Of a stretch of 64,000 bases of DNA, positions 11,742-57,883 are shown piece by piece (position 1 is the stretch's first letter; each line of letters begins with the position of its first letter). Position numbers and translations under genes: made by a program. The notes beneath the pieces were generated by a model. That model made no database searches. It worked only from the letters and a program-made list of their open reading frames with translations, and was not told where the DNA came from. The DNA is from a bacterium (GTDB taxonomy: Bacteria > 4484-113 > JAGGVC01). The stretch lies in assembly GCA_039961635.1 (NCBI GenBank), contig JABRWB010000012.1, forward strand, positions 22,273 through 86,272, written 5' to 3'.

Positions 11742-13642
11742 TTTTCCGGCTGCTTGCCGCTATTTGGTTGATACTTTCGCTAAATGCCGCGTGGATCGGG
11801 GCGGCCGAATGCCAAGATGAAGGTTCGGGCGGAAATTCCGAATCTGCCGCCGAAGCCGATTCGGGGCGGGACGATTCCGAAGAAATCGAAGTCGGCGAAG
11901 TGGAGGTTGAAGGCGAGAAACCCGCGTCCGCGGAATCGCTGCCCGGCGAGGATTTTTTGTTGATTGACATCGAGGATTTCTTGATTCCCGGAGAGTCGCT
12001 CGGCGATGTCCTTGATACGCTCGGGGGCGTCGAAGTGCGCGGCCTGGGGGGGGGACTGGATATGACGACGTTTTCGATCCGCGGCGCGGGCGCGCACCAA
12101 ACCGATATTCTGCTTGAAGGCGCGCCGCTTTCGCCCGCGACCGGCGGCGTTTTCGACCTCTCGCTGTTGCCGGCTTGGTTTGTGCAATCCGCTCTCGTCA
12201 CCCGCGGCCCAGGCTCGATAGGCGGGAAAGCGCTCGCGGGAGAACTGGATTTGCGCCTGGCGAACGATACAGGAACTTCATTTTGCTCCGGCCGCGGCAG
12301 TTTCGGGACTTATTCCGCGATGATGAGGGGCGGATGGAACGCAGGAAATTCGAATTTTGTCATGGCCATTGGCTATGATTCTGCGGACGGCGATTTCACC
12401 TACGGGCGGCGCGACGGGAAAACCTACACGCGCTCGAACAACGAACGCGAGCGCGTTGCGGTCGCGCTGTCTTGGCAAACCAAAAACGCCGCGCGGGACG
12501 ATTCCGCATTTTTGCTGGCCGCCGACCGCTCCGGCGGTGTGCCGGGGCTGTCGGAATTTCCGACGCCTTCGGCGCACCAGGACGACACGCTTTTTCTCGC
12601 CGGTTTTTCCTCGACGGACAAATCGTTTGAAAAGGGCGAGTTGACGTGGACCGGCTACTCGCGCGTCCAACACACGGGCTTCGGCGATCCTTCGCCTTAT
12701 CTTGGAAACGCGGTGTATGCTGATCAATCCGAATACGCCGCCGGCGCCGCGGTATCGTTCAGGCGTCCGTCGGGGGGGGGTATCTTCGGTGCAAAAATAT
12801 CTATCGATGGAGCGGTTCTTTCCGACGATTCCTACGGGAATCCTGAACGGAGAACAATCGCCGCGACTCTATGGCGCGAGTTTTACGCCGGCAAGGCGGC
12901 TTTTTCCGCCGCACTGTCCGGGGAGGCGGCGAGCGACGGCCCCGTCGGCTGGCGCGGCAAACTGGGAATGGAGCGTAAACTGGGTGCGGGATTGTCATTA
13001 GCGGGCAGCGCGGCGCGCTCGTTCAGACGGCCCGATTTCGCGGAGCTTTATTATCCCGAATCGGGATTCATCGGCGGCAACCCGGAGCTTTTCCCGGAAA
13101 CCGGATACACGTTCGATTTCGGCCCGCGATTTCGAGGAAGCAAGTTGGATGCTTCACTTGTCGGATTTATCCACCGGTTTTCGGAATCGATCGAATTCGT
13201 GCCCGTATCCGCATACCGGCTTCGCGCGGAAAACACGGGGGGGGTGCGAAGCCGGGGCGTATCGCTGGACATACAAGCGGCTCCCGCGGACGGATGGAAG
13301 CTGGACGGCTCATTCACATTCCTTGACGCGGAATACCTGGACGGCGGACTTCCGCTTGCGGGGAGGTCTCCGCGCAAATGGAGTGTCGGCATATCGCGCG
13401 AGTCCGCCAACTGGCAAGTGTCGGCTTCATTCCTTCACCGCTCTTCCACGCCCGTCGACAGATTCGGCTCGCTGTATGTGGGCGCGGCCGGCGATTTGTC
13501 CGCGGCTCTTGTTTTCAGGCCCGATGATTCCTGGCGGATTTCGGTGTCGGGATTCAACCTGCTCGACGAAGATATCCGGGACAGCCTGGATTTCCCCCGG
13601 CCCGGCCGCTCGTTTTTTCTTTCGGTAAATCGCGAGGTGTAG
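11738..13642 (+). CDS. btuB: TonB-dependent outer-membrane receptor, BtuB-like.
   Basis: ATG 11738 overlaps the btuC stop (ATGA) with SD GGGGGAGG. Signal peptide MIFRLLAAIWLILSLNAAWIGAA. Plug-domain motifs VEVRGLGGGLDMTTFSIRGAGAHQTDILLEGAPLSP and VTRGPGSIGGKALAGELDL. The barrel C-terminus ends ...FFLSVNREV, not the usual aromatic residue. Confidence 0.8.
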   Translation: MIFRLLAAIWLILSLNAAWIGAAECQDEGSGGNSESAAEADSGRDDSEEIEVGEVEVEGEKPASAESLPGEDFLLIDIEDFLIPGESLGDVLDTLGGVEVRGLGGGLDMTTFSIRGAGAHQTDILLEGAPLSPATGGVFDLSLLPAWFVQSALVTRGPGSIGGKALAGELDLRLANDTGTSFCSGRGSFGTYSAMMRGGWNAGNSNFVMAIGYDSADGDFTYGRRDGKTYTRSNNERERVAVALSWQTKNAARDDSAFLLAADRSGGVPGLSEFPTPSAHQDDTLFLAGFSSTDKSFEKGELTWTGYSRVQHTGFGDPSPYLGNAVYADQSEYAAGAAVSFRRPSGGGIFGAKISIDGAVLSDDSYGNPERRTIAATLWREFYAGKAAFSAALSGEAASDGPVGWRGKLGMERKLGAGLSLAGSAARSFRRPDFAELYYPESGFIGGNPELFPETGYTFDFGPRFRGSKLDASLVGFIHRFSESIEFVPVSAYRLRAENTGGVRSRGVSLDIQAAPADGWKLDGSFTFLDAEYLDGGLPLAGRSPRKWSVGISRESANWQVSASFLHRSSTPVDRFGSLYVGAAGDLSAALVFRPDDSWRISVSGFNLLDEDIRDSLDFPRPGRSFFLSVNREV

Positions 13643-19456: not shown

Positions 19457-21667
19457 TCATCTGTTCCGGCTGCCGGCAGCCGATTGCGCGCCTTCGGCGG
19501 GCGGAGGGATTTTTTGGCTGGAATCCTGCGGAGGCGCCTGCTGGCCGGACTCCGGGGGCGGAGCCTGCTGGACATTCGATTGATCTCCGGTGTTGACCGG
19601 TGCCTGCTGAGGAGCGGCGGTCGCATCGCCGGTGACGGGGGGTGTGGGCGCGCCGCGCGGAACGACTTTGCCGCTTCCGTCTGGGCCGGGTACAACCGGC
19701 CCCATCTCGCCGCCGCCGTAAGTCGGAGCTGGAGCCCCTGGCGTGACGGGACCCTGGCCGGCGGGCGCCGGGGTTCCGGCCGTGACCGGACCGCCTTCAA
19801 CCGGCGCGCCGGGAGCGGCTTCCCCGGCTCCAGCAGCGGGCGTTGCGGGAGTCTCGGGCGCCGGCGGCTGTTTCAGTTCAGTCTGAAGCTTTGGCAGGCC
19901 GGATGCCGGCGGCGGAAGCTGATTCTCCCCGGCGCTGTCCTGGATGTATCTGAAATTCGGATCGTCTGTAAGTCCGAATCCGAGATCTTCAATGTCTCCC
20001 GGAATCGGCGCACGAGCTTCGAATGTGAGAGTGGCCGCCTGGCCGCTGCCCCGCACAGTCCGTATGATGTCGTCAAGCGAAATAGCGATTGTGACCAATC
20101 CGCTGGATTTGTCCGGCTGGGCATAAAACATCGTTGCATCGCGCCCGCCGTCAAACATAGAGCCGATTTTGACTTTTGTAAGGCTGAAGTTGTTCACGTC
20201 GAACGTTACTCCAAACAGTCCGCGGCGAAAATCGGGGATATTGCGGACATCGAGTGAAACTTCCAACGAATCCCCGGGATCCATTCCGGACTTGGGCTTA
20301 TCATATTTCAATTCCGCCGCCGGTTGAGGTGTTTTCACCTCCAAATCCAGCACCGTGGGCTCCGTCAGAGGAACTCCTTTCGGATTTACGATTATCAGGC
20401 TGACCGTGACGGATTCCGCGGTATCGGGAATGAACCGGACGAACGGCTCCGAAAGCGTCAATGTGACCGTCGGCTTGTCCTTGACTTCAACGGCTTCGGC
20501 TTCCTTCGCGGCAATTTCGTCGGTGATCTGCTTTTGAATGTCGTCAATCAGCTTTTCGCCTGCATCCCGCTTGCCCGGCATCGTGAATTCCCAAGGCGTC
20601 GGCCAGGAGTTTCGCTCCTTCAAACCCGCGCCGGTGTCGTCCGAAGCCGTTTCGGGGGCGACGGAATCGGAGTCATTTGCATCTTCTCCGCTTGCTGCAT
20701 CGGTTTCGGTCGAAGGTGTTTCCTCTGCAGGTGCTATTTCCGCTTCGGCGGAAGCCGCCTCGCCGGATTCCATCCCGTCCGCGGGCCGCTCAAGTTCCGT
20801 TGACCCGGATTCAATTTCGGTATCGGATGCCGTTTCATCCGCAGTATCATCTGCGGAGTCAACCGCTTCGACGGAATTCACCACGCCATCGTCCTGAAGC
20901 GCCAATACCGCATACTTGATTTGGCTGTAGTTGCCGAACAGGCTTGCGAAAATCGTACTGCGTTCGTTCCTCGATGCGACGGTGACCGGCGGCGCAGCAG
21001 GCTCGGTTCTGGTCGGCTCGGCCGGTTTCGGCGCAAGCTGCGGCGGCGGCACCGGCTCGCCGGTTTTGAACTGCTGGTTGCCGCCGCTGGGCGCGGCCGG
21101 TTTCTGGTCCATAACTTTGTCCGGCGATACCGTTGCGGGGATGGTTTTGCCATCCACCGTAGCCGGAGCGCCGCCGGCCGGAACCGGAGCGCCCGTATCG
21201 GTTCCCGCGGGCGCCGCGGGAGTTTCGCTTTCTGGTGCGGACGAAGCCGGCGGGACTGCAAGCGCTTTCAGCCTTTCGCGATCCGATTCGTTGACCGGCA
21301 AAAGCTTGCCGCCGGTCACGTGCCATTCGTAGCGGATGTCTTTTTTGTCGGGGTTGTCCACTATGGCGTAAACGTTGTAAGGCTGATTAACCTCGACCTG
21401 GCCGACCTCGAAGCTGATTTGCATAATCGTGACCGGCCGCTCGGGCGCGCGCTGGCCGGATGTCTCGGACTGCCCAGAGGGATTGCCGTAACTCTGCGAG
21501 TTTCGGTTCGGCGTATTCATGTTTTGGTTGTAACTCGGATTCGTCTGAAGGTTGCTTCCGGACGAGGTGCAGGCCGAACCGTACGCGACCGCGGCCGAAA
21601 ACGCCAGAATCAATGCGGAACCAGCGAACTTCGTCGCATGCTCCCTGAAATAATTCCTGATATGCAT
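19457..21667 (-). CDS. Proline/alanine-rich secreted lipoprotein with a cohesin-like beta-sandwich segment.
   Basis: Probable start MHIRNYFREHATKFAGSALILAFSAAVAYGSAC (signal plus lipobox) at 21667; the track ORF extends to 21793. Long low-complexity P/A/T/E-rich tracts. One globular segment (LEVSLDVRNIPDFRRGLFGVTFDVNNFSLTKVKIGSMFDGG) resembles the cohesin-like segment of the 41194..41844 protein. Confidence 0.6.
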   Translation of the reverse strand: MHIRNYFREHATKFAGSALILAFSAAVAYGSACTSSGSNLQTNPSYNQNMNTPNRNSQSYGNPSGQSETSGQRAPERPVTIMQISFEVGQVEVNQPYNVYAIVDNPDKKDIRYEWHVTGGKLLPVNESDRERLKALAVPPASSAPESETPAAPAGTDTGAPVPAGGAPATVDGKTIPATVSPDKVMDQKPAAPSGGNQQFKTGEPVPPPQLAPKPAEPTRTEPAAPPVTVASRNERSTIFASLFGNYSQIKYAVLALQDDGVVNSVEAVDSADDTADETASDTEIESGSTELERPADGMESGEAASAEAEIAPAEETPSTETDAASGEDANDSDSVAPETASDDTGAGLKERNSWPTPWEFTMPGKRDAGEKLIDDIQKQITDEIAAKEAEAVEVKDKPTVTLTLSEPFVRFIPDTAESVTVSLIIVNPKGVPLTEPTVLDLEVKTPQPAAELKYDKPKSGMDPGDSLEVSLDVRNIPDFRRGLFGVTFDVNNFSLTKVKIGSMFDGGRDATMFYAQPDKSSGLVTIAISLDDIIRTVRGSGQAATLTFEARAPIPGDIEDLGFGLTDDPNFRYIQDSAGENQLPPPASGLPKLQTELKQPPAPETPATPAAGAGEAAPGAPVEGGPVTAGTPAPAGQGPVTPGAPAPTYGGGEMGPVVPGPDGSGKVVPRGAPTPPVTGDATAAPQQAPVNTGDQSNVQQAPPPESGQQAPPQDSSQKIPPPAEGAQSAAGSRNR

Positions 21668-36466: not shown

Positions 36467-36676
36467 TTACTTGCAGCAGGAATCTCCGTCGCCGTCGTCC
36501 TTGCAGCATTCGCAATCGCAATTGCATCCGCAAGAGCAACAGCTGCAGGTGCACTGGCCTCTAAGGAACGCCTGGATGCGCTCGCCCCACTCGGCGCGGA
36601 TTTCCTCGTCCTCGCTTTCGACCGTGAGCATGTAGCCCTTGTCGGTCTTCGTGAGCTTGATCGTCAACATGTCCAT
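36467..36676 (-). CDS. Small (69-aa) cysteine-rich protein, metallothionein-like (12 Cys in the last 30 residues).
   Basis: MDMLTIKLTKTDKGYMLTVESEDEEIRAEWGERIQAFLRGQ-CTCSCCSCGCNCDCECCKDDGDGDSCCK. SD GGAGG lies 7 nt before the ATG. Follows the MarR-like gene by 55 nt. Followed by a terminator. Confidence 0.6.
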   Translation of the reverse strand: MDMLTIKLTKTDKGYMLTVESEDEEIRAEWGERIQAFLRGQCTCSCCSCGCNCDCECCKDDGDGDSCCK

Positions 36677-36733
36677 CGGACAACCTCCGTAAATCAGTTT
36701 AGAGTTTAGATTTGAGAGTTTTGAGTTGGAAAA

Positions 36734-37309
36734 TCAGCAGCAAGTGCCGCCTTCGGATTTTTCGAACGCGGAGATCAGCTCCTCAAGCGCGTCAACGACA
36801 TTCTTCCGCCGATCGCTCGGAATCATGCCAAGAACGTCTTCCAGAAAGCCGATTTTTCGCGAACGGATTTTCGCGGCAACGTCCGCTCCCCGCCCCGTGC
36901 AACACAGCCGGATGACCCTTCTGTCGCCGCCCTCGACGCGCTCCACAAATCCCGCCGACACAAGCGGATCGACGTGACGCGTCAGCGTTGATGCGGACAC
37001 GCCCGTCTGCTCCGCCAGCGTCGCGCACGTGCAGCCGGGGCAAAGGCAGAGCGTTTCGAGGGTGCGGCACTGGGCCGGCGTCAGCCCGTCGCAGCAGGGA
37101 GCAGCCTCGTCCCGGGAAAGCGCTTTCCCGAGCCGTCGCAGCACTGCATCCAGCCTGTGCGCTAGTGCATGGATTCCGCCGCGCCGGGAAGCCGCGCCGC
37201 AGGAGCCTGACGCACAGCAGCATTCGCCCTGCCTTGAAAGGACAGCGGCCGGCGGGAGCTCTCCGCGGCGGGCGGGGCCGGACTTTGGTTTTGCAGCCTG
37301 ATTCGCCAA
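36734..37309 (-). CDS. MarR-family transcriptional regulator with Cys-rich N- and C-terminal extensions.
   Basis: Winged-HTH core LTPAQCRTLETLC...ATLAEQTGVSASTLTRHVDPLVSAGFVERVEGGDRRVIRLCCTGRG. Cys clusters ECCCASGSCG, PCCDG, CLCPGCTC, and terminal GGTCC. Confidence 0.7.
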   Translation of the reverse strand: MANQAAKPKSGPARRGELPPAAVLSRQGECCCASGSCGAASRRGGIHALAHRLDAVLRRLGKALSRDEAAPCCDGLTPAQCRTLETLCLCPGCTCATLAEQTGVSASTLTRHVDPLVSAGFVERVEGGDRRVIRLCCTGRGADVAAKIRSRKIGFLEDVLGMIPSDRRKNVVDALEELISAFEKSEGGTCC

Positions 37310-37588
37310 CCTTTAACTCTCCTTGGATTCAACCGTCCGGACTTGAGGCCGCCGCCAAGACAAGAAAGCACGCAGGGACGAAGATACAAGGCCAATACGG
37401 CTCAATCAATCAAGCCGCATTCGCATCCTGCCTCCGGCCAAGCGGCTCGCAACGCCGCCGTCCAGATAGTTGTAGATTACAAATATCAGATATTCGAAGG
37501 ATTGTCAAGTAGAAAATGTGGTTTCGCTCAAAATGCTTATGCGCTGTATCCGATCGTTCCGCAAGGCCTGATGCGACGAATCCGCCTG

Positions 37589-40500
37589 TCAAAGAGTTTC
37601 CCCCCAGCGGTAACCGATTTGGCCCGCATCCCGCTCGTCTATCACGCCGTCCGCGTTGCAGTCGAACAGCGGATTGAATCCGGTGTCGGCGCTCGTCAGG
37701 AAAAGCACATCCGAGAAGCCGTCGAGATCACCTTCGCCGACCGTCCCGTCGCCGTTGGTATCGCCCACTAGGTTATACAGCCAAAATGGAAGCGAAATAG
37801 GGATCGATGAATCCCCGTTCGAGTTGAACGCCGTCACTACAACCTGCGCCCTTTGATTCGGAAGGGCGTTGTTTCCCACGCTGAAAGTGACGCCGAACGG
37901 CTCGTCCGAGATTTGGAACAATTGGTCGTACTCATCCTCCCGGCCGAGAGGCGCGTAATCCAGCCTGTATTCCACTCTTTCGACATAGGTAAGGCCGCTG
38001 ACCGAAAACGTCGCACTGTATTGATTCGTGATCTTTCCGAATATCCCGCTCGGGTTCATCGAGGCCTGCTCCACCACCGGCCATTTGAGAACGACGGACC
38101 GGTTGTTGATTTCGACGTCGTCCAGCCATGCGCCAATTCCGTTTGTCTGGTCGTTCCCCCACGCCCACCAGCAAAGCGCGCCCGAATATCCCTTGTAGTT
38201 GTTCAGCGGGAACAGCTCCTGGTACCAATCCGGCCGGTCGTTCGCCCATCCGCCGATCCACATGTAACCTTCCCAAGTGTTGTAAAGGTAAAGCCCGCCG
38301 CCGAAACCGTCCGGCAAATCCGCCTTGAACCAGTACGCAAGCACCGGATCGTCGACCGCGTCGCCCGCAAGATCCACGCATTGACGTCCCGCGGCCGGCG
38401 TAAGCCCGGAGTACCATAATCCTTCGCTGTTGTATTGTCCGAACGGCGCTTCATAGCCGAACGAAGTCGGCGCGGAGTGCGAGTCGGTCGTGACCGGCCG
38501 CCAGTCCGGCGCAATTCCGTCGGAGCCGTATCCCCAGTTATCAGTGCCGCCTTCAAGGTCGTCGAAAATCGGATAGGGGCGGTCGTTTTTCCACTTGAGC
38601 GAGATTGACGCAGGCTCGGACGGCAGTCCGTCGTTGTCCTCCGAAATCACCTTCAGGACGATATTCGGATGGTTGTCGTCGTCAAGTGTATTTCGAGTGT
38701 ATTCCCAGGGAGCATCTTCATCAGTGGAAACCAGCCAGTCGTGCAGATAGAAATACACGCGCTCGACAGCGTTGTCGTCCGATGCGTCCGCGGTGAAGGT
38801 TGCATCGCCTGAAATGACGTCGCCTTCGATGTGGCTTGTGATGGCCGCGGTAGGCGGATCGCTCGGCGCTTCCCGGAGCATGAAATCGTCTATGTTCGCT
38901 CCAAGCCCCGCGTCCGCGGTCGGATGCACCGAGCCGGTGTACCTCAGCTCTATGTATGCGCCGGTGCCTTGCAATTCGAAAGTGCGGTTCCAGAGCGTCC
39001 ATCCCCAGTTTGGCTGCACCCTGTCCACAAGCCGCCAGGTCGCGCCTTCGTCGGTGGTCGCGTAAACCTCGAACGTATCGCGCGATCGGTAGAAAAATTT
39101 CATGTGTATCCGGTTCGTGAATCCGGATATGTCGACGCGCTGGCTGCGCAGCTTGTCCTTGTTAGCATTGTGCCAGGTGTCTGCTCCGCCGTACGGGCGC
39201 ACCCAAGCCTCGTTGCCGGCGCCGAGCGGCGCGGGATCGCCGGGGCTGGTTCGCGTGTCCCATGCGGTGTATTGCCCGCCGGGTTCGCGCGGAGCGTTGA
39301 GGATTTTCCACTTGAATAAACCGCTTTCGAAATCGTCGGAAAGCGTTGTCACCCCGGCGTTGTCCACGGTCACGAAAATCGTGTCGGATGCGGACTGGCC
39401 GTTCCCGTCGAATGCGCGCGCGGTGATTTCAACCGATTTGTTGAACTCGACACGCGTGTTCCATGCGTAGTTGTACGGCGCGGAAGTCAGGTCCGCGGTC
39501 CATTCGCCGTCGATGAAAAGCTCGACTTTTGAAATCGAATCGTCGTCCGCCGCATCTACTGAAATCACTTCTCCGCCGCTTACGGTATCTCCCGGCCCCG
39601 GAGAAGTAATAGCGACCGACGGCGCGGAATCCGGATACAAAAGAATGTCTGCCGTCATCACCGCGCCGGCGGGAGAAATGTTGTTGACCGTGATTCCGGT
39701 GGGCGCGCCGGAGTAGTCGTTGGAATTGGGATAAGTGACCGGCGATAACGAAGTTCCTTCCGTGTAATAATCGCCGGCGTTCGCTCCCCCACCGTTTTCG
39801 ATTTCATCCAGTCCGTCCGCCTCCATAAGCTTGATGTACTTGTGGTCGGTGTACGAGTTGTTGTAACGCGTTCCCCCCCCTTCGTCGACGCGCGCATCTA
39901 TATGCCATATCAGAAGACCGCTGTTTGGATACCCTGCGTCCGAGCCTTCGGCCTGCCTGTTTTCGATCATGAAATATTCGGCCCACGGCGTCACGCCGTC
40001 GAACCATGGCATCGCAAGCACCGCGTCCGGATTTGCAATCACTTTGTCCAGCTGCTCTCCCGGCAGATTCGTGAACGTGATCGTTGGGGAAAGCCAGCCG
40101 AGCATATATTTGCTGAAGCAGCAATGCCCGCCCCAGCCGCCCATCATGTCGAGCCCGCCCACTCCGCCGCGCTCGCCCACCGAATCATCGTAGTCGTAAT
40201 AATCGGGCAGCCCAAGTCCGTGGCCGGTTTCGTGAATGACGGTTCCGGGATCCCACACTTCCGGAAGCGGCGGCTCCTCACCGAAGTAGTACCATCGCTC
40301 CGGCTGCCATGAGTAGCTTCCGAATTCGACGCCGTCCAGCGAAAATCCGCCCATCCACATCGCGAATCCCCACCAGTAAGTCGCCCAATCGCCGTTTGGC
40401 CCGGTCCAGAGAATCGTGAACCCGTCCACCAGGCCGTCCTTGTCGTTGTCGTACTGCGAAAAATCCACGCCCGCGTCGTCCGCCGCGGTCAGCGCTTCGA

Positions 40501-41197
40501 TAATGAGCTCGCGCTGGCGCTCCCCGTCGGTCGGCAATCCTTCGTTTTGATCGGGATGGTAATAGTCGCGTGTCCGGCTGGCCATATGCCAGGAAAAAAC
40601 ATCGCCCGTTATCTGAAGCTGGCCGTAGCTCTGCTCCAAATAATACTGTCGCAGGCCTATGTACGGCGCGCCGGGATCGCCGTCGCCGTAAAGCACGTCG
40701 TCGAACTGCTCTTCGGTGAAATAATGCGGGTAATTGGGGAATTCAATCGGCAGGCAGAACATCTTGACCGTACCGATTGAGGGGAGGACCGCAGTGTCCC
40801 TTGGCATTTCGAATCCGAGAACCAGCAGGTCGCGTTCGTCCACGACGCGGTCGTGATTAAGGTCGTATTCGATGTACGAAAGCTCGCGCGACGTGCTGCG
40901 GCCGATTTCGCTCGCGGATTTGCCGTCGAGCGAGCGGCCGAGATTGGCGAGTATTCCGTCGGCGATTTCGCGAGGACTCAATGCAGCGATTTCGAGCGCG
41001 CCGCGCTTGGGTACTTTTGCTTCCCAATTGCCGAGCCTTTTCGCGTTTTCGAGCGCCTCGGCGTAAGTACCTTCGCGCTTCATCCGCTCGATCATTCCGG
41101 GCTTGGGCGGCTCAAGCGCAAAAGCATGGCATGGCAACAAAACCGGAACAGCGAAAATCGCGGCAACCGGAATAAGAAGGGCAGGGGAGGATTTCAT
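37589..41197 (-). CDS. Secreted M6-family (immune inhibitor A-like) metalloprotease with Ig-like/PPC-like modules and a C-terminal dockerin-like module.
   Basis: Signal peptide MKSSPALLIPVAAIFAVPVLLPCHAFA. M6 zinc site TVIHETGHGLGLPDYYD. The C-terminus VGDTNGDGTVGEGDLDGFSDVLFL...FDCNADGVIDERDAGQIGYRWG is a two-segment dockerin-like Ca-binding repeat. Confidence 0.85.
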   Translation of the reverse strand: MKSSPALLIPVAAIFAVPVLLPCHAFALEPPKPGMIERMKREGTYAEALENAKRLGNWEAKVPKRGALEIAALSPREIADGILANLGRSLDGKSASEIGRSTSRELSYIEYDLNHDRVVDERDLLVLGFEMPRDTAVLPSIGTVKMFCLPIEFPNYPHYFTEEQFDDVLYGDGDPGAPYIGLRQYYLEQSYGQLQITGDVFSWHMASRTRDYYHPDQNEGLPTDGERQRELIIEALTAADDAGVDFSQYDNDKDGLVDGFTILWTGPNGDWATYWWGFAMWMGGFSLDGVEFGSYSWQPERWYYFGEEPPLPEVWDPGTVIHETGHGLGLPDYYDYDDSVGERGGVGGLDMMGGWGGHCCFSKYMLGWLSPTITFTNLPGEQLDKVIANPDAVLAMPWFDGVTPWAEYFMIENRQAEGSDAGYPNSGLLIWHIDARVDEGGGTRYNNSYTDHKYIKLMEADGLDEIENGGGANAGDYYTEGTSLSPVTYPNSNDYSGAPTGITVNNISPAGAVMTADILLYPDSAPSVAITSPGPGDTVSGGEVISVDAADDDSISKVELFIDGEWTADLTSAPYNYAWNTRVEFNKSVEITARAFDGNGQSASDTIFVTVDNAGVTTLSDDFESGLFKWKILNAPREPGGQYTAWDTRTSPGDPAPLGAGNEAWVRPYGGADTWHNANKDKLRSQRVDISGFTNRIHMKFFYRSRDTFEVYATTDEGATWRLVDRVQPNWGWTLWNRTFELQGTGAYIELRYTGSVHPTADAGLGANIDDFMLREAPSDPPTAAITSHIEGDVISGDATFTADASDDNAVERVYFYLHDWLVSTDEDAPWEYTRNTLDDDNHPNIVLKVISEDNDGLPSEPASISLKWKNDRPYPIFDDLEGGTDNWGYGSDGIAPDWRPVTTDSHSAPTSFGYEAPFGQYNSEGLWYSGLTPAAGRQCVDLAGDAVDDPVLAYWFKADLPDGFGGGLYLYNTWEGYMWIGGWANDRPDWYQELFPLNNYKGYSGALCWWAWGNDQTNGIGAWLDDVEINNRSVVLKWPVVEQASMNPSGIFGKITNQYSATFSVSGLTYVERVEYRLDYAPLGREDEYDQLFQISDEPFGVTFSVGNNALPNQRAQVVVTAFNSNGDSSIPISLPFWLYNLVGDTNGDGTVGEGDLDGFSDVLFLTSADTGFNPLFDCNADGVIDERDAGQIGYRWGETL

Positions 41198-41844
41198 GAC
41201 TGCGCCTCCCTCGTCTCGGTGTCGAAGCTAATTCGCCTTCCCGATGAATCGCGCAGCTGCATGAAAGCGGGGTCGGACATGAATCCGAAGCGCCTGCTTG
41301 GATTTTCGTTTGAAATCACGCGGAATCTGACGCGCAGAAGCTCGCTTTCGCCCGGCCGGATTTGCGCACCGCCCGGCAGCGCCGTGAACGAAAACGGAAC
41401 AGCACCTTCAAGATTCAGTCCGGCGACGGACAGCGTTTCATCCGGAAGTCCCGCGCCCCGGGAAGCCTTAATTGGCCGGTACTTTCGGGAATCGAAAACG
41501 ATCCTCGTGCTGCCCTGGAATACCGGCTCGCAGTTTCGCACGCTCAAGACCGCGTCGAATTCGTCGCCGGTTTTGTAATCGGAAGATGCGGGCGTCACAA
41601 GCGAAAGCACCGTTCTTCCTCCGGCATCCGCTGCTAAGCCGGGATTCGATTCGCTGCCGCCGGTTGAATTCGGATGCATCGGGCTTTTGCCCGATTTGCA
41701 TGCGGGAGCGGTCAACAGCGCCAGAAGCGCAAATCCAAAAAGCCAGGCCAGGCGAATCGTGTTTTGCAATCCGGACTCCGCGTATAAATATAGAGGCGGA
41801 GAGCCGCCTCGCGGAGCGGATTGTAGCATCCGGCCCGCGTACAA
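41194..41844 (-). CDS. Cohesin-like lipoprotein translationally coupled to the M6 protease.
   Basis: Signal/lipobox ...LFGFALLALLTAPAC. Beta-sandwich-like segment FDAVLSVRNCEPVFQGSTRIVFDSRKY...LSVAGLNLEGAVPFSFTALPGG. Its stop overlaps the protease start (ATGA, 41194-41197). Start uncertain: ATG 41844 or ATG 41829. Confidence 0.55.
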   Translation of the reverse strand: MYAGRMLQSAPRGGSPPLYLYAESGLQNTIRLAWLFGFALLALLTAPACKSGKSPMHPNSTGGSESNPGLAADAGGRTVLSLVTPASSDYKTGDEFDAVLSVRNCEPVFQGSTRIVFDSRKYRPIKASRGAGLPDETLSVAGLNLEGAVPFSFTALPGGAQIRPGESELLRVRFRVISNENPSRRFGFMSDPAFMQLRDSSGRRISFDTETREAQS

Positions 41845-41920
41845 TCACCGGCAATCAGCCTTGATACGAGCATTCTTTGTATAGTCTGGAAAACCCGTCG
41901 CCGGCAAGATATCATCCATC

Positions 41921-42598
41921 GTGCTTCGTTCGATATGCGCATTTGTGCTTTTGGCTGCGCCGCTGGTTTTGCTGGCGGCGGCACATCAAATTCCCGCGGA
42001 GCTTCCGCGCGAATACGGTTTCTCGGCGGAGCTTGCCGCGAAATTCGATGCCTGGGTGAAGGAAACGCTCGACTGGACGAATGAGAAGGGCAAATACGCT
42101 GTAATTGTGGATAAAAGCAAGTATTCGCTTTACCTGGCGATTAACGGCAAGGTCGTCGCCGCGATGCCAATTGAACTCGGATTCGAGCCGGTAGCCGACA
42201 AGCGGATGGAGGGCGACGGCGCGACGCCGGAGGGGAAATACAAAGTCGCGGAGAAGCGCGACGTCGGCCAGACGCGGTTTCACCGGGGATTGCTTCTCGA
42301 TTACCCGAACGAAACCGACCGCAGCGAATTCCGCGAATGGAAGGCCGCGGGCGAAATTCCGGCGGATGCAGCAATAGGCGGATTGATTCTGATTCACGGC
42401 TCCGGCTCCGGCAAGCGGCCCGCGGAAGGCGGCTCGAACTGGACGCTCGGATGCGTCGCGCTTTCGAATTCCGACATCGATCGGCTTTTCCGTCACGCGT
42501 ACAAAGGAATGCCGGTCACAATCGTGCGGTTCACGAATGCGGACTTGAGTCCAAAATATTCCCGGAAAAACAAAGCTCCGAATACCAGTTCTGCGTAA
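41921..42598 (+). CDS. L,D-transpeptidase (YkuD/ErfK catalytic domain).
   Basis: Signal peptide. Catalytic region GDGATPEGKYKV...HRGLLLDYPN...IHGSG...GGSNWTLGCVALSNSDIDRLF with active-site Cys. Confidence 0.8.
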   Translation: MLRSICAFVLLAAPLVLLAAAHQIPAELPREYGFSAELAAKFDAWVKETLDWTNEKGKYAVIVDKSKYSLYLAINGKVVAAMPIELGFEPVADKRMEGDGATPEGKYKVAEKRDVGQTRFHRGLLLDYPNETDRSEFREWKAAGEIPADAAIGGLILIHGSGSGKRPAEGGSNWTLGCVALSNSDIDRLFRHAYKGMPVTIVRFTNADLSPKYSRKNKAPNTSSA

Positions 42599-42652
42599 AT
42601 TGAATTGCGGTTCGCTGGTCTGGAGACCGGCGGCATATTTCAATACCTAATA

Positions 42653-43441
42653 TTACGCGAAGATTTCCTCGAAGAAATCAAGCATCGCCCGCCAGCTTCG
42701 CTTGTCGGCGGATTCGTTGTAAGCGGCGCCGCGGGACGGGTCGCTTCCCGCATTCCAGTCGCTGAATGCGTGCACCGCGCCGCCGTAAAGAACAATCTGG
42801 TAATCCGCGCCGGCCGCGCGCATTTCGTCCTCGAAAGCCTTCAACTGATCGCCCGCGATGTTCTTGTCGTCCGCGCCGTGAAGCACCAAAACTTTCGCCT
42901 TGATTTGCCCCGGCGCGGCGGGCATTTTCGTTTCGAACGAGCCGTGGAAGCTGACTACTCCCGCGATTTTCGCGCCGGTGCGCGCCAACTCAAGCACTCC
43001 GCCCCCGCCGAAGCAGTATCCGATCGCGGCGATGCGCTTCGGATCGACGTCCTTTTGCGCCAGAAGCGCGTCAAGCGCCGCGTTAAGCCGCGCGCGGAAC
43101 AACTCCGGGTCGCTGCGGTATTTTCCCGCCTGCGCGCCCGCTTCCTCCATATTTTGCGGCCGCACGCCTTTGCCGTAAATGTCGGCGCAGAACACGACGT
43201 AGCCCAGCTCGGCGAGCATCTCCGCCCGCTTTTTCTCGTAGTCGGACAGCCCGCGCCACTGGTGCACGATCAAAACGCCCGGCCGCGCGCCGCCTGCAAC
43301 GCTTTCGCGCACGACCCATCCTTCAAGCGGGACGCCGCCTTGCTCGTATTCGTAGGTTGTTCCCGTCACTTTTGCTTCCGCGAGCGATGAATGCAATACC
43401 ATTGCAATTGCAATCGCCGCCATCAAATATAAGGATTTCAT
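42653..43441 (-). CDS. Dienelactone hydrolase family protein (secreted).
   Basis: Signal peptide; GYCFGGG nucleophile elbow; ...VLHGADD... and HAF motifs typical of DLH. Confidence 0.85.
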   Translation of the reverse strand: MKSLYLMAAIAIAMVLHSSLAEAKVTGTTYEYEQGGVPLEGWVVRESVAGGARPGVLIVHQWRGLSDYEKKRAEMLAELGYVVFCADIYGKGVRPQNMEEAGAQAGKYRSDPELFRARLNAALDALLAQKDVDPKRIAAIGYCFGGGGVLELARTGAKIAGVVSFHGSFETKMPAAPGQIKAKVLVLHGADDKNIAGDQLKAFEDEMRAAGADYQIVLYGGAVHAFSDWNAGSDPSRGAAYNESADKRSWRAMLDFFEEIFA

Positions 43442-52377: not shown

Positions 52378-52800
52378 GGAAACAATATCTACAAGGAGCC
52401 GAGGCTTCAGCCTCGGCGGAACGCAATGGAAACCGTGGCAAGTGCAAGGCAAGCCAATCCGAGGAGCGCCGCCCCCAATGGCTGCAAATCAAATGCCTCC
52501 ATATTGGCAGCTATGCAATTCCGCGAACCAAATGCCGGAATCCGGGTCTATAATGACGGCGATGGGGATTTTCCAGCGGGACGAATACGGGCCGATCATC
52601 TCGCCGCGCCGCCGCGCTCCGATTAACGGGTATTCCGGTACCCGAATGTGGATGCGCGCAAATTCCGCGCCAGTGGTACCTTACAAAAGCGCGTAATAGG
52701 GACTCAAGCGGGGTATAATACCAGCGAGCGGTCACCTTCCCGGAGGTTGGTGCAACTTGTCGGGAACACGCCGATTGGTTTTGCACATTGGAGAAAGGAT

Positions 52801-54483
52801 GTGAAAAGGGAGCTTTCGCAACGGTCGTTAATCGGGCCGTTATTTTTTTGTTTGCTTGCTGCGCTCGCGCTGTTAGCTGCGCTTGCCGGATGCGCCGGTT
52901 ATTCTCATCAGAAATACGCACGAGCCGGACACTCGACGCCTCTGTCCGCCGCGCTGGCCGAAATCCGCAACGCCGCGCCTCCCCAAGGCGCAGATCCCGC
53001 GGTTTTCGATTCGCTCAAGCTGCAGCTTGAATCCGAACTAGCCGCGCGCTACGGCGACACCGGACGAATCCCGTCTCGAACCGGAAGCCGGGTTGAAGAT
53101 TTGAGCTACGATACGGGCACGGGATTCATCATTTGGACGTACGTAAACGCGGCGGATTACGACGCGAACGGCGAGACGAGCATCTCGGATGTCACCCCGA
53201 TCGCGCTGAACTGGCAGGCGATTTGCGACGACGGAATAGGCGACGACGCTCACGAATCCTGGATAGACGGCGATCATTCGAACGAAGTGGGGATTTCCGA
53301 CGTGACTCCCATCGCGCTCAATTGGCAGTCCACAGTCGCCGAGTACATAGTCTTTGCTGCCGATGATGAGGCGGGGCCGTTCACCGAAGTCGCCAGAGTG
53401 CCGTTCGGAGATGTTATCGACAGCTGGCCGCCGCACTTCGAGCTGGAATGGCAGCCAGCTTGGGGCGATTATGGCGCGGTTCAGCCCGCGGACGGCGAAG
53501 GCAACACTGGCGAGATGAGCAACGTGGTGGCCATCGGCGGCGCGCTTAAGGATATCGAAATCATGGAGCCGTCCATCACCGCTACGGCGCTTGTGGACAC
53601 CGAAATTCAAAGGACGATCCGCGTAAGAAACAACACGGACGGTCCGATCGACTGGTCGCTCGACCTGACCGGCGCGTTCCTCGCGGCGGATCCCGCATCG
53701 GACACGACAGGCGCGCATTCGATTACCCAGGTGACCGTGACGCTTTCGGCAGTCGGCCTGCTTCCGGGCGTGTACAACGGCGGAATCGCGCTGGATTCGA
53801 TTGCGGGATTCGACAGCTGCCCCGTGTTTTTCACCGTCAACGAATTCGGCGCGGTCGTCAGCATTTTGGAGGATTCGATTTCCGCGACCGCGCCGGAGGA
53901 CGGCTCGGACTCCGAGGTATTCACCCTAAGGAACGACGGAAATATCGACCTTGACTGGGAGGCGTTCGCGGACGATCCGTGGATTACCTTCGATCCCTCA
54001 TCCGGCACTCTGGGCGCCGGGCTTGAAGTTCAGATTACCGCCGATTTCTCGGCCGCGGGAATGCAGGAAGGCGAATACGATTCGACGATCACGGTCGAGG
54101 AATCCGGCAATCCGGCGAACGCGGACTCTTGCGAGGCGCAATTTACGGTGACCACAGGCGGAGTTCCGGTTCTCGACCGCCTGACCGTGGACGGCGCGAC
54201 CGGCGGTTCGGGGACGCAGGCCGACCCGTGGGTGTTCCCAGTGGGCACGACCGCAGTCCAGTTCCACGCGTGGGACACCGACGACAACGAAATCACGGAG
54301 CATCCTTCGATGCTGTTCGATTTCGGAGCGGGCGTTTCGCCCAGCCCGGCCACCGGATGGAGCGTGTCGACAGCCGGAAACTTGATATGGGGCGAATTCG
54401 ATTCGTTAATCGAAGTAACCGGTCAGTACGACGGGTGGCCCGATCCTGCGATGAGTTATTGGATATACAAGGCTCCGTTTTAA
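52801..54483 (+). CDS. Secreted lipoprotein with an N-terminal dockerin-like module (paralogous to the N-terminus of the 4432..8469 protein) and Ig-like domains.
   Basis: Probable GTG start 52801 (SD GGAGAAAGG), giving VKRELSQRSLIGPLFFCLLAALALLAALAGC (lipobox). Dockerin-like ADYDANGETSISDVTPIALNWQ / IDGDHSNEVGISDVTPIALNWQ. N-terminal region PQGADPAVFDSLKLQLESELAARYGDTG parallels PQDADPQTFDILRAKLIEFVTS of the 4432 protein. The track start 52648 is probably an over-extension. Confidence 0.65.
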   Translation: MKRELSQRSLIGPLFFCLLAALALLAALAGCAGYSHQKYARAGHSTPLSAALAEIRNAAPPQGADPAVFDSLKLQLESELAARYGDTGRIPSRTGSRVEDLSYDTGTGFIIWTYVNAADYDANGETSISDVTPIALNWQAICDDGIGDDAHESWIDGDHSNEVGISDVTPIALNWQSTVAEYIVFAADDEAGPFTEVARVPFGDVIDSWPPHFELEWQPAWGDYGAVQPADGEGNTGEMSNVVAIGGALKDIEIMEPSITATALVDTEIQRTIRVRNNTDGPIDWSLDLTGAFLAADPASDTTGAHSITQVTVTLSAVGLLPGVYNGGIALDSIAGFDSCPVFFTVNEFGAVVSILEDSISATAPEDGSDSEVFTLRNDGNIDLDWEAFADDPWITFDPSSGTLGAGLEVQITADFSAAGMQEGEYDSTITVEESGNPANADSCEAQFTVTTGGVPVLDRLTVDGATGGSGTQADPWVFPVGTTAVQFHAWDTDDNEITEHPSMLFDFGAGVSPSPATGWSVSTAGNLIWGEFDSLIEVTGQYDGWPDPAMSYWIYKAPF

Positions 54484-54550: not shown

Positions 54551-57500
54551 ATGGAGTTTGAAATGGCGAAAAGGAATCTGATTGCTGTTGTCGTGCTCGT
54601 GCTTGCGTTTGCGATGTACGCCTGTGGAGGCGGCAGGAAGCTAAGCTCTCCCGCTCCTATTCCGTCCGGCCCAGTCTCCGACCAACAGGCAGGCGGCTCC
54701 GACAATACGGTTGGCTCGCTCTCGGATGCGCTGAAGGCAATCGTGGATTACGAAAACTCGCAGACCGCGATGCAGGCCGCGCGGGATGCCGCCCGCAAGC
54801 CGAGCGCCGTGCCGAATACGCTTCTTGGCGACGAGGAGTGGATGAAAGGCCCGACGATGAACAACTATGAAGAGGATTTCGATTCGCACACCCTTACGGC
54901 GATAAGCGATTCCTCCGATATCGAAGACGTCGGATTTTTGGGCTTCGCCGTGTACAGGTTCGACGGGCATGCCGCCGATACCGATCTTTCCCTCGCCGCA
55001 GAAATAGAGCCTGCGCCGGGAAGCTCCTTTTACATTTACGTGGTGAGCTGGGATGGACCGCCAAGATGGATAAGCTTCGGTCCGTTTTTTGAAAATCCAG
55101 GTCCGCCGGATTGGCCGATCGAATTCGCGTTCGACGCGGTTTCGCCAACCGGCAGCATTTACGTCGGGATTGCGGTTTACGCCGAAAGCGAAGCGACAAC
55201 CTGGTCGTTTACTGTGGATTCCACCGGAGGTGCATCAAGTCCTCCATTCGCGGATATTCAGGCCAATCCAAAGTCGGGAGATCCGCCGCTAAATGTTTCG
55301 TTTGATGCCGGAAACAGCTACGACCCTGACGGAGGGGCGATAACGTTATTCGAGTGGGATTTCGAAGGCGACGGCGTTTACGACGAATCTGGCGCATCAT
55401 GGACGGCTTCCCACATTTACAACGCGCCGGGCGTTTATGCCGCAACTGTTCGAGTAACGGACGACGAAGGGGAAAAGGACACAGCGCACACGATTGTGCG
55501 CGCGGGAGCGAATCCGTATTACGAAACGGAGGACAACGACGACCTTCCGCAGGCGAACGCGCTGCCTGCGTTCGACTTCTCGGGCAACACGGTGTCCGGC
55601 TCCATCGGCAACGACGATCCCGAAGGCAATTACCCGGGCTACGACGGGGACAGTTCGGATGCGTTTTCTTTTGCCATAACCGAGGCCAGCACGGTTTCGC
55701 TGACAATTCTGTATGACTGGGAAACCTGCGGGCTTGGATTCGACGTGTACGACGAAATGTGGAATTATTACGGCGGCGGCAATGGCGACAACGGTATCGC
55801 ATTCGCCGAAGTGGGATTGACAAATCCAGGCACTTACTACGTTTGGTTATACAGTTGGTGGGGATACAGCGATTACATAATCACCGGCTCGCGCGTGTCG
55901 GGGGTCAAACCGGTTGCAGATATCGTGGCTGAACCTTCGTCCGGCGAGGCACCGCTTGACGTTCAATTGGACGCCGGTGCAAGTTATGATCCCGACGGCG
56001 GCTCCATCGTCAAGTACGAATGGGATTTCGAAGGCGACGGAATTTATGACGAAGATACCGGCGGTACGCCCATAACCAACCACATTTATGCGGACGATGG
56101 ATTTTATCTTGCGACCGTCCGGGTAACTGACGACGAAGGCGCAGCCGCAACCGACTCCGCTCTTGTATATGTTGGAACTCCGTTTTACGAAGTTGAAGAC
56201 AACGAGGAGTTTTACCAGGCAACACCGCTTCCGGCATTTCCTTTCCCGGCTCCGCTTGTGAACGGCAGCGTAGGTTCAAGTTTGGATTATCCGGGTTACG
56301 ACGGCGATTACTACGATGTATTTTCGTTTGCAACAACAGAGGCAGGCGCTGTTGAATTCCTGCTTACATACGGCACCGACTATGGTACGGCATATTTCGA
56401 CATTTACGACGGGGATTGGAATTATTACGGCGGCTCTTGGGACGGCGACGGAGACGGTTACCTGGTGGTGTATTTAGACAATCCCAATACCTACTATATT
56501 TCGGTTGGGATGAACACGGGCGAATGGACCGAATACGAATTGGAAGGGGCGTTTTATCCGGGCCAGCTTCCAGTCGCCGACATAGTCGCAGCGCCCGCAT
56601 ACGGCGATCCGCCGCTCGACGTGGATTTTGACGCGGCCGCAAGCTACGATCCCGACGGAGGAGCCATCGTCAAATACGAATGGGATTTCGACGGCGACGG
56701 GGTTTGGGACGAGGACACGGGGGGCAGTCCGGTTGCTTCGCACCAATACACGTCCGAAGGTGTGTATGTCGCGGCGGTCCGCGTGACCGACGACGAGGGC
56801 GCGCCGGATATAGACACCAAGGTGATAGTTGTCGGCAATCCGCAGTATTTCGAAATCGAGGATAACGATTGGATGGATGAAGCCAATCCGTTGCCCGATT
56901 TGCCGTTCCCGTCGCCCTTGGTCAACGGCAGCATAGGCTGGGGCAGCGGCTATGATGGTTACGACGGCGATACAGAAGACTTCTTTAGTTTCGAAACCGA
57001 TGAATCCGGAAGCATTAATCTCTTTATCGAATTCGAGCAAATGACCGCACCGAACACCGAAGCCTACGTAATCAACTCAAATGAAGACTGGATCGCAGGA
57101 GATTACGACAGGGACGGCGACGGAGACATAGAGCTTCAGGCGTTCCTGCCGGATCCGGGCAAATACTATATAGCGGTTTTCAACAGTGGTTTTGAGGAAT
57201 TCTCTGATTACGAAATAACGGCGGAATTAATCCCAGGCGATCCGCCCGTAGCGGATTTCACAGCCGATCCGATCTGGGGCTCGCCTCCGCTGGCGGTGGA
57301 TTTTGACGCTTCCGCAAGCTACGACCCGGACGGAGGCCCGATTGTCAATTACATGTGGGATTACGACGGGGACGGCATTTACGATGAAGAATCGCCCGGC
57401 GATCCGACGATATCCCATTCGTACGATGACGCGGGGATTTATAACGCGACGCTCAAAGTGATTGACGAGGAGGGCGCGTATACCTCGGCCAGCATTAGAA

Positions 57501-57883
57501 TAATCGTCGGGCCGTTTTACGAAACCGAGGACAACGACGACTCGACGGAAGCGGACGCGCTTCCGGCATTCCCGTTCTATTCGGATACGGTGACCGGCAA
57601 TTTGGGAGCCGGCGGATACAACGGAGACAACGAGGATTGGTTTGAATTCGAGATTACAGATCCCGGCGAAATTTACTTTTACATCGAATACAACTTCAAT
57701 CTCGCCAACCTGCAGGTGGAGATTTTCGACTCATCGCTAAACCAAATCTACTCTTCCTATATGGACGGCGATTACGAGGAGATAGATTACTGGCTGGATT
57801 CACCCGGCACTTATTACCTGCGCTGTTTCGTCAACTCCGGTCAGACGAACTACGTGATGTCCGGCGAATTCTGGAGCTGGTAG
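54551..57883 (+). CDS. Giant lipoprotein with four tandem PKD plus pre-peptidase C-terminal (PPC) domain pairs.
   Basis: Lipobox VVLVLAFAMYACGGG. Four PKD units (PPLNVSFDAGNSYDPDGGAITLFEWDFEGDGVYDE...; APLDVQLDAGASYDPDGGSIVKYEWDFEGDGIYDE; PPLDVDFDAAASYDPDGGAIVKYEWDFDGDGVWDE; PPLAVDFDASASYDPDGGPIVNYMWDYDGDGIYDE), each followed by a PPC-like unit (YYETEDNDD...A..LPAF.F...V.G..G...Y.GYDGD..D.FSF). Repeat period is about 660-670 bp. Confidence 0.75.
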   Translation: MEFEMAKRNLIAVVVLVLAFAMYACGGGRKLSSPAPIPSGPVSDQQAGGSDNTVGSLSDALKAIVDYENSQTAMQAARDAARKPSAVPNTLLGDEEWMKGPTMNNYEEDFDSHTLTAISDSSDIEDVGFLGFAVYRFDGHAADTDLSLAAEIEPAPGSSFYIYVVSWDGPPRWISFGPFFENPGPPDWPIEFAFDAVSPTGSIYVGIAVYAESEATTWSFTVDSTGGASSPPFADIQANPKSGDPPLNVSFDAGNSYDPDGGAITLFEWDFEGDGVYDESGASWTASHIYNAPGVYAATVRVTDDEGEKDTAHTIVRAGANPYYETEDNDDLPQANALPAFDFSGNTVSGSIGNDDPEGNYPGYDGDSSDAFSFAITEASTVSLTILYDWETCGLGFDVYDEMWNYYGGGNGDNGIAFAEVGLTNPGTYYVWLYSWWGYSDYIITGSRVSGVKPVADIVAEPSSGEAPLDVQLDAGASYDPDGGSIVKYEWDFEGDGIYDEDTGGTPITNHIYADDGFYLATVRVTDDEGAAATDSALVYVGTPFYEVEDNEEFYQATPLPAFPFPAPLVNGSVGSSLDYPGYDGDYYDVFSFATTEAGAVEFLLTYGTDYGTAYFDIYDGDWNYYGGSWDGDGDGYLVVYLDNPNTYYISVGMNTGEWTEYELEGAFYPGQLPVADIVAAPAYGDPPLDVDFDAAASYDPDGGAIVKYEWDFDGDGVWDEDTGGSPVASHQYTSEGVYVAAVRVTDDEGAPDIDTKVIVVGNPQYFEIEDNDWMDEANPLPDLPFPSPLVNGSIGWGSGYDGYDGDTEDFFSFETDESGSINLFIEFEQMTAPNTEAYVINSNEDWIAGDYDRDGDGDIELQAFLPDPGKYYIAVFNSGFEEFSDYEITAELIPGDPPVADFTADPIWGSPPLAVDFDASASYDPDGGPIVNYMWDYDGDGIYDEESPGDPTISHSYDDAGIYNATLKVIDEEGAYTSASIRIIVGPFYETEDNDDSTEADALPAFPFYSDTVTGNLGAGGYNGDNEDWFEFEITDPGEIYFYIEYNFNLANLQVEIFDSSLNQIYSSYMDGDYEEIDYWLDSPGTYYLRCFVNSGQTNYVMSGEFWSW

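Follow-up and report, generated by a model that had tools for sequence, protein, structure and literature searches.

A 64,000-nucleotide stretch of bacterial DNA (contig JABRWB010000012.1, positions 22,273 to 86,272; hereafter the window) carries on its minus strand two overlapping genes, the first encoding a small predicted lipoprotein with a single cohesin domain and the second a 1202-amino-acid (aa) M6 metalloprotease. Comparison with related loci indicated that the two genes form an ancient, dedicated and translationally coupled module of one uncultured bacterial lineage. We favor, at a probability of roughly 0.4, the explanation that the lipoprotein is a dedicated membrane tether for the protease, that it binds a module near the protease N-terminus that is invariant in the clade, and that the dockerin at the protease C-terminus is an accessory.

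Homologues of the protease number in the hundreds. By way of the protease alignment, 160 loci with M6 relatives were fetched from genome and metagenome collections, and all open reading frames (ORFs) at these loci were scanned with a hidden Markov model (HMM) of the cohesin family. Co-occurrence was scored at 26 loci of the clade to which the window protease belongs and at 115 other M6 loci. A cohesin gene lay directly upstream of the protease gene at all 26 clade loci, and the family HMM detected none at the 115 others. Records of the clade carry the label UBP7, "Planctomycetales bacterium" or "bacterium", and their proteases are 45-57% identical to the window protein. Seventeen of the 26 pairs are distinct, with cohesins 29-79% identical. 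Stop and start codons overlapped or abutted at every clade locus (ATGA, GTGA, TAATG/TGATG or ATGnnnnnTA(A/G)), each time with a GGAGG-like site. Three distant members of the cohesin family (~25% identity) were looked up individually, and all three were followed by overlapping M6-type N-termini. Neighbor-joining trees of the cohesin and of the protease core were broadly congruent in topology. The upstream placement and overlap at every clade locus, the absence of the cohesin gene elsewhere and the arrangement around the distant members together led us to describe the module as ancient and dedicated.

In the window, the TGA of the cohesin gene overlaps the ATG of the protease gene as ATGA, an overlap already reported in a first-pass annotation of this DNA, and GGGAGG lies seven bases upstream. 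The upstream frame is open from 41844 to 41194 (-) and would encode 216 aa if taken whole, which is how the first-pass annotation took it. The ORF, its signal peptide and Cys24 stand, with the start likely to be the TTG at 41769 instead of 41844, since GGAG precedes this TTG and the resulting product matches a 191-aa NCBI protein. That protein (HRF49_02140, a "hypothetical protein" of a metagenome-assembled genome) is the sole close database relative of the lipoprotein and is 99% identical to it over the full length. Just upstream of the TTG and within the longer ORF there is a G+C-rich hairpin (GAGGCGGCTCTCCGCCTC then TATATTTATA, 41793..41810(-)); it fits the shorter gene model, and it came from a promoter and terminator scan that as a whole was at chance level. 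Across 18 aligned relatives the lipobox cysteine did not vary, and the lipoboxes of most homologues are canonical ones of the L-A-C-G-G type, such as LLACGG and LIACGG.

Searches with the lipoprotein alone gave no indication of its family. No Pfam family, PF00963 (Cohesin) included, was matched by the 216-aa ORF (E <= 1) or by the isolated domain (E <= 10); there were no NCBIfam matches and, by phmmer, no PDB matches, and a word-index homologue search returned only the lipoprotein itself. An exhaustive HMMER search yielded about 45 family representatives of 190-215 aa that share one architecture, namely a signal peptide running to the invariant cysteine, a linker of variable length and a conserved domain of ~140 aa. 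PF00963 was matched by 29 of 47 family members (best 1.3e-8), and the family profile matched the solved cohesins 2vn5_A (2.5e-5), 3l8q_A, 1g1k_A and 4uyp_A. The AlphaFold2 model of the lipoprotein had nine strands (predicted local distance difference test, pLDDT, 88.1; predicted template modelling score 0.71), in agreement with the beta-sandwich segment read earlier from the sequence. The top 50 PDB matches found with this model by Foldseek were all cohesins, at E values from 3.7e-7 (6kgc_A) to 2e-5, with target-normalized template modelling scores of at most 0.76 and sequence identities of 9-19%. The Pfam check that had been proposed for this protein was thus negative for the single sequence and was overturned by its family and its fold, and we regard the assignment as a cohesin, based on profiles and the model, as solid. 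Natural fusions of a cohesin to an M6 domain were also considered; the long distant relatives (P0164, P0165, P0167 and P0171) turned out to be multi-cohesin or immunoglobulin (Ig)-repeat proteins, the phmmer matches P0165 and P0171 being multi-cohesin proteins.

Seven of the ten most conserved positions of the cohesin (Q85, R89, P125, A/S127, T129, L/M170 and R173) fall on strands 3, 6 and 8. The sheet formed by strands 8-3-6-5 is the face of cohesins that touches the dockerin in solved complexes. By analogy with those complexes, the conserved face on strands 3, 6 and 8 is a candidate dockerin-binding face.

The downstream product matched the NCBIfam M6 domain TIGR03296 (144.5 bits against a cutoff of 110.8, 6e-42, residues 152-432) and Pfam Peptidase_M6 (PF05547, 41.5 bits against 22). 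These matches identified it as a large, predicted secreted zinc metalloprotease of the M6 (InhA/PrtV) type and, with the zinc motif at residues 322-335, upheld the earlier call of a 1202-aa M6 protease at 37589..41197(-). The position of the signal cleavage site is conserved in the protease alignment. Pfam Big_7 matched in two stretches (5.8e-28), PDB matches were to Ig-like and fibronectin type III-like domains, and phmmer detected no match between the protease sequence and solved M6 structures.

The part of the protease that follows the cohesin most closely lies near its N-terminus. Ten residues (D112, N114, D116, D120, E121, R122, D123, L125, L127 and G128) were invariant in 27 aligned clade proteases, and they form a canonical 12-residue calcium loop with its helix, DLNHDRVVDERDLLxLG, some 25 residues ahead of the catalytic domain. 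All 38 long-form clade proteins had the motif; among 82 shorter homologues it occurred in just three, two being truncated members of the clade. In the third, the 777-aa variant P0043, the long C-terminal region is missing and the module is retained; a 200-aa gene overlaps its start by 4 nucleotides (nt). Across the scored loci, motif and cohesin occurred together 26 times and were both absent 115 times, with no discordant locus. The motif also recurs in distant pairs, as NLDGNDVIDERDVLPLG in L164 and DRNGDDMIDELDLLE in L168. In L164 the motif comes after another near-canonical loop, DLDRDSRVD, which occupies the place where the window protein has a degenerate loop. The profile of the N-terminal region had a dockerin as its best PDB match (E 0.01, a weak match), and dockerins were the sole, again weak, structural neighbors of the module. 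In the AlphaFold2 model the region is helical (pLDDT 76.6) with a beta-bridge between S89 and V118, the latter being, by our mapping, in the canonical calcium loop; we read this bridge in the model as resembling that of an EF/F-hand pair. Taken together, the module resembles a dockerin that is half degenerate.

On maturation the M6 protease PrtV sheds its first 105 residues; it is processed at both its N- and C-termini and is stabilized by calcium (PMC2613228). By this comparison, the N-terminal module is probably placed where M6 enzymes carry a removable pro-region. Since it lies in a region that enzymes such as PrtV shed, a tether that grips it may act on the zymogen.

The protease also ends in a dockerin. 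Two segments had been quoted as evidence for it, DTNGDGTVGEGDLDGF (residues 1146-1161) and DCNADGVIDERDAGQI (residues 1179-1194); their calcium loops, DTNGDGTVGEGD (from residue 1146) and DCNADGVIDERD (from residue 1179), are spaced by 33 residues. This agrees with the type I dockerin pattern of two ~22-residue segments spaced by about 33 residues, in each of which a helix follows a 12-residue calcium loop (D-x-N/D-x-D-G-x-x-x-x-x-D). Taken by itself, the window tail scored 19.2 bits against the Pfam dockerin profile, below the threshold of 22.9 (E 0.0014), and its best PDB match was the dockerin 2y3n_B (E 0.0014). A colinear dockerin tail ends 14 of the 37 other long-form proteases. The profile built from the 15 tails matched 2y3n_B at 9.2e-10 and then a long series of other dockerins, 2jnk among them, and Pfam Dockerin_1 (PF00404) matched 14 of the 15 at E <= 0.1 (best 1.1e-8). 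These results indicated that the tail is a bona fide dockerin, a reading that the window tail in isolation would have left below the Pfam threshold. Calcium-loop motifs are rare in the window: a regular-expression scan of all six frames found five, of which this tail has two and a further two large secreted proteins have the other three.

Among the full-length clade proteases, 24 of 38 (~63%) have no dockerin and terminate in an IPT/TIG domain with a short tail after it. Thirteen of the 17 distinct coupled pairs have such a dockerin-less protease and retain the coupled cohesin. In neighbor-joining trees the dockerin-bearing proteases were not monophyletic, the window protease grouping with IPT-type ones, and the cohesins did not cluster by the tail type of their proteases. 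By these data the C-terminal dockerin lies outside what is conserved with the cohesin, and it is probably an accessory that has been exchanged repeatedly. As the coupling survives loss of the dockerin, the presence of a cohesin beside a dockerin is no proof that the two bind each other. The first-pass annotation had proposed a dedicated anchor-and-enzyme pair joined through this dockerin; the pairing is supported and the link in the form proposed is not, given the proteases that lack the dockerin and the indifference of the cohesins to tail type.

Two other C-terminal candidates for a cohesin ligand were set aside. An element common to all clade proteases was sought in the motif VVLxPPxLxxxEQ[LY], which is confined to the IPT-type proteins; the window protein has no IPT domain. 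The long C-terminal region (residues 600-1130) is an unlikely ligand because P0043 lacks it and is nevertheless overlapped at its start by the 200-aa gene. The IPT-type relatives (e.g. L005, L010 and L015; P0003-P0039) have a conserved extreme C-terminus, V(V/I)L.PP.L...EQ(L/Y), after the IPT/TIG domain, and this tail resembles no sorting signal known to us.

An alternative to the N-terminal contact is a calcium-dependent bond between the upstream cohesin and the two-segment dockerin at the C-terminus, which would be the operative tether, the cohesins of dockerin-less orthologues having another use or other partners. A genuine cohesin and a genuine dockerin are encoded here in translationally coupled genes, segment 2 of the dockerin (VIDERD) and the N-terminal loop that is invariant in the clade (VVDERD) have a (V/I)DERD core in common, and every one of the 15 tails has Glu at loop position 10 of its segment 2. 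With that Glu and the common core, the same cohesin face could read both the N- and the C-terminal elements. Set against this, the coupled cohesin is kept where the dockerin is missing, the polyphyletic occurrence of the dockerin does not co-vary with cohesin sequence, and the putative binding face is conserved in both protease classes. Other possible receptors for the dockerin also exist, namely the lipoprotein at 19457..21667 and a cohesin-plus-dockerin adaptor beside the protease of L012. On balance we consider this alternative rather unlikely.

Under the favored explanation, in which the lipoprotein tethers the protease by its N-terminal module, translational coupling would yield the two proteins in near-equal amounts, and both would be exported. 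The cohesin, presumably anchored in the membrane by its lipid, would then capture the protease and hold it at the cell envelope. Contact would be made between the 8-3-6-5 face of the cohesin, with its conserved strands 3, 6 and 8, and the N-terminal calcium-loop and helix module (residues ~61-128), possibly with a dependence on calcium. The C-terminal dockerin would serve as an accessory plug for the same cohesin or for another, such as that of the 19457..21667 lipoprotein.

Several observations weigh against this explanation. The first loop of the N-terminal module has no calcium ligands in the window protein. All 26 loci belong to one clade, so the co-occurrence of module and cohesin may reflect shared ancestry and not function. 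The window lipobox (...LLTAPAC) is non-canonical at the -3 and -2 positions with respect to [LVI][ASTVI][GAS]C. Finally, a bona fide dockerin beside a bona fide cohesin leaves room for the simpler direct contact in this organism.

A more specific form of the N-terminal contact, which we regard as unlikely, is that the operonic cohesin reads a cryptic, half-degenerate dockerin in the pro-region and thereby holds the zymogen at the membrane until autoprocessing frees the mature enzyme. Dockerin-bearing variants, once freed, could re-dock through the C-terminal dockerin onto a second cohesin, for example that of the 19457..21667 lipoprotein. A cohesin-dockerin pair would here serve as tether and release switch of a zymogen, and this would be the first obligatory, gene-coupled pair of a cohesin and its ligand.

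The same strict 1:1 coupling, seen at 26 of 26 loci whatever the C-terminal module, would also suit a lipoprotein that acts as a dedicated inhibitor or as a folding or secretion chaperone, shielding the envelope until the enzyme is released, and not as an anchor. It would then be comparable to the beta-barrel or beta-sandwich inhibitors that operons of secreted proteases encode. The element specific to the partner sits in the N-terminal part of the enzyme, probably its pro-region, and co-operonic pairs of protease and inhibitor are familiar from serralysin/Inh, staphopain/staphostatin and protealysin/emfourin. We judge this role to be quite unlikely. The fold is specifically that of a cohesin, a scaffold-type module unlike known inhibitor folds, and we know of no cohesin that acts as a protease inhibitor. 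The conserved residues lie on the dockerin-binding sheet and not on protruding loops, and a lipid anchor with a flexible linker suits tethering.

It is also conceivable that lipoprotein and protease do not bind each other at all, that the cohesin recruits other proteins with dockerin-like modules, and that the two genes are co-expressed as part of a shared surface-degradative program. Coupled genes are not the usual arrangement for cohesins and their dockerin ligands in cellulosomal organisms, paired calcium-loop modules are present in two other secreted proteins of the window (with PKD and BACON domains), and the lineage has further cohesin and dockerin proteins. The overlap is nonetheless kept across cohesins that are 29-79% identical, which argues for a stoichiometric partnership, and this cohesin family was found only beside this protease type, at all 26 clade loci and with all three distant members. 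Moreover, the other calcium-loop modules match calmodulin-type EF-hand pairs and not the Pfam dockerin. We therefore consider the absence of any mutual binding very unlikely.

The module resembles the type I and II pairs of cellulosomes (Clostridium thermocellum, C. cellulolyticum, and Acetivibrio and Pseudobacteroides scaffoldins) in the nine-strand cohesin fold, in the two-segment calcium-loop dockerin tail (closest to 2y3n_B) and in the proposed plug-and-socket attachment to a cell-anchored protein. It differs in that a single cohesin sits on a 191-aa lipoprotein, whereas scaffoldins carry multiple cohesins with carbohydrate-binding modules, surface-layer homology or sortase anchors; in its cargo, an M6 protease in place of a glycoside hydrolase; and in the translational coupling of its genes. 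The pairing here also persists without a canonical dockerin, and identity to solved cohesins is low (9-19%). No dockerin-bearing glycoside hydrolase was found near the module or among four other window proteins scanned, which speaks against a cellulosome. The earlier placement of the pair outside classical cellulosomes accords with these features: one cohesin per 191-aa protein, a protease as cargo and no such hydrolase nearby.

Cohesin and dockerin modules outside cellulosomes have been surveyed by Peer et al. (cited as ref. 52 in PMC6461901). As here, such modules occur in proteins unrelated to cellulose degradation; the Archaeoglobus fulgidus cohesin 2xdh and the Clostridium perfringens cohesin-like 2jh2 were among the fold matches, and of the FIVAR-dockerin structures 2ozn/2jnk the latter was among the tail matches. 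Those modules are, unlike the present ones, scattered in multidomain enzymes. We know of no described lipoprotein cohesin that is strictly coupled to one protease gene. The "Planctosome" hypothesis for freshwater Planctomycetes holds that cohesin-dockerin contacts tether zinc peptidases to the outer membrane for polypeptide degradation; its components are an LTD-anchored protein of 2,210 aa bearing one cohesin, a dockerin-and-cohesin adaptor, and M12B and M14 peptidases (PMC6461901). It applies the modules to the same conceptual use as the first-pass annotation had proposed for this pair, and both are in silico models. The present system differs in its 191-aa lipoprotein cohesin, its M6 peptidase and its operonic 1:1 arrangement. 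With InhA of Bacillus and PrtV of Vibrio cholerae the protease shares the M6 catalytic domain (HExxH...D) and a multidomain, secreted build with Ig- or PKD-type C-terminal domains. The clade is set apart by the N-terminal calcium-loop module, by a C-terminal region of much greater length, by a dockerin in some members and by the cohesin gene that always stands upstream, and none of the four was seen at the 115 other M6 loci.

The general idea is thus not new, because cohesins and dockerins outside cellulosomes are known and the planctosome has already been proposed in silico. In the literature we found no description of a lipoprotein with one cohesin whose gene is coupled, strictly and at the level of translation, to that of one M6 protease, of such coupling persisting without a canonical dockerin, or of a cryptic N-terminal dockerin-like ligand. 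Cohesin-dockerin binding ranks with the strongest protein-protein interactions known; such pairs are widely used in synthetic biology, and their roles outside cellulosomes are mostly guesses. The module offers a clean, minimal and conserved case, in which, across at least 17 divergent lineages, the gene of a small lipoprotein cohesin is tied to that of a single protease. If the N-terminal module is the ligand, the definition of a dockerin would extend to N-terminal forms with a single calcium site, and the pair would reveal retention or release of a secreted zymogen at the surface of uncultured, protein-degrading bacteria.

Table 1. Positions of the two genes, their parts and the related lipoprotein in the window (nucleotide positions of the window; residue numbers of each product).
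Feature	Position	Strand	Basis or remark
Lipoprotein gene, 191 aa, single divergent cohesin domain	41194..41769	(-)	TTG start; ORF extends to 41844
Signal peptide and lipobox of lipoprotein, residues 1-24 (...LLALLTAPAC)	41698..41769	(-)	Sequence reading; Cys24 presumed lipidated
Low-complexity linker KSGKSPMHPNSTGGSESNPGLAADAGGR, residues 25-52 (~28 residues)	41614..41697	(-)	pLDDT 55-72; no secondary structure by DSSP
Cohesin-fold domain, residues 53-189, nine-strand beta-sandwich	41203..41613	(-)	AlphaFold2, Foldseek, family profile
Coupling junction	41194..41210	(-)	GGGAGG 41205-41210 inside cohesin gene; ATGA 41194-41197
M6 protease gene, 1202-aa product	37589..41197	(-)	ORF list; TIGR03296, Pfam Peptidase_M6, Big_7
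Predicted Sec signal peptide of protease, residues 1-27 (cleavage between ...CHAFA and LEPP)	41117..41197	(-)	Sequence reading
N-terminal dockerin-like helical module, residues ~61-128	40814..41017	(-)	Degenerate first loop, then canonical calcium loop and helix
Canonical calcium loop and helix of N-terminal module, DLNHDRVVDERDLLVLG, residues 112-128	40814-40864	(-)	
M6 catalytic domain, residues 152-432	39902..40744	(-)	TIGR03296
Zinc motif HETGHGLGLPDYYD, residues 322-335	40193-40234	(-)	HETGH begins at residue 322
Two Big_7 Ig-like domains, residues 526-593 and ~782-869	38591..39622	(-)	Flank beta-rich region
C-terminal type-I-like dockerin, residues 1143-1202	37592..37771	(-)	Calcium loops at 1146-1157 (nt 37727-37762) and 1179-1190 (nt 37628-37663)
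Pro/Ala-rich lipoprotein, 737 aa, related cohesin-like domain at nt ~19922-20287	19457..21667	(-)	hhalign, hmmsearch

The likeness noted earlier between the upstream lipoprotein and the proline-rich lipoprotein at 19457..21667 was real. The domain of the latter aligned with the operonic cohesin family in hhalign at a probability of 92.8% (E 3.9e-7, 116 columns) and in hmmsearch at 1.4e-5, and the protein has the lipobox AYGSAC. It had no Pfam matches, and a word-index search returned no homologues of its cohesin-like domain. The long Pro-rich flanks suggest a cell-surface stalk, and the protein is, on sequence grounds, a candidate alternative receptor for the C-terminal dockerin of the protease.

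Directly downstream of the dockerin-type protease in L012 (JADZFO010000056.1), on the opposite strand, a 922-aa protein is encoded at 9823..12588(-). It has a weak match to the cohesin family at residues 63-202 (E 0.002), Pfam Dockerin_1 at residues 240-290 (E 1.2e-4), and PKD and Big_9 domains. This combination appears adaptor-like and suggests a wider cohesin-dockerin network in the lineage.

On the plus strand of the window, two proteins carry the same paired calcium-loop module ~150 residues from the N-terminus, W(T/I)Y.N..DYD..GE....D(I/V)TPIA ... WIDGD...E(I/V)G(V/I)SD(I/V).PIALN. One is encoded at 4369..8469(+) (1366 aa, four PKD domains) and the other at 52648..54483(+) (611 aa, BACON_2). 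Neither module matched a Pfam dockerin at E <= 0.1; the best PDB matches were calmodulin EF-hand pairs, at ~1e-4. These modules may be further dockerin-like plugs for the cohesins of the window. The gene adjoining that of the BACON protein, 54551..57883(+), encodes 1110 aa with a lipoprotein-like N-terminus (...AMYACGGG) and four repeats, each of them a PKD domain with a PPC-like module after it.

Around the pair itself, an Rfam scan of 36500..42700 returned no RNA families, and a promoter and terminator scan of the region gave no signal above chance. Plus-strand ORFs across the two genes (e.g. 40853..41578) were treated as artefacts of the high G+C content. The gene order YkuD, cohesin-protease pair, MarR was repeated in near-identical contigs from three sequencing runs. 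The MarR-family regulator (36734..37309(-)) lies 280 nt 3' of the protease gene on the same strand and has an unusual Cys-rich N-terminal extension (...CCCASGSCG...CC...), with the same arrangement in the near-identical contigs.

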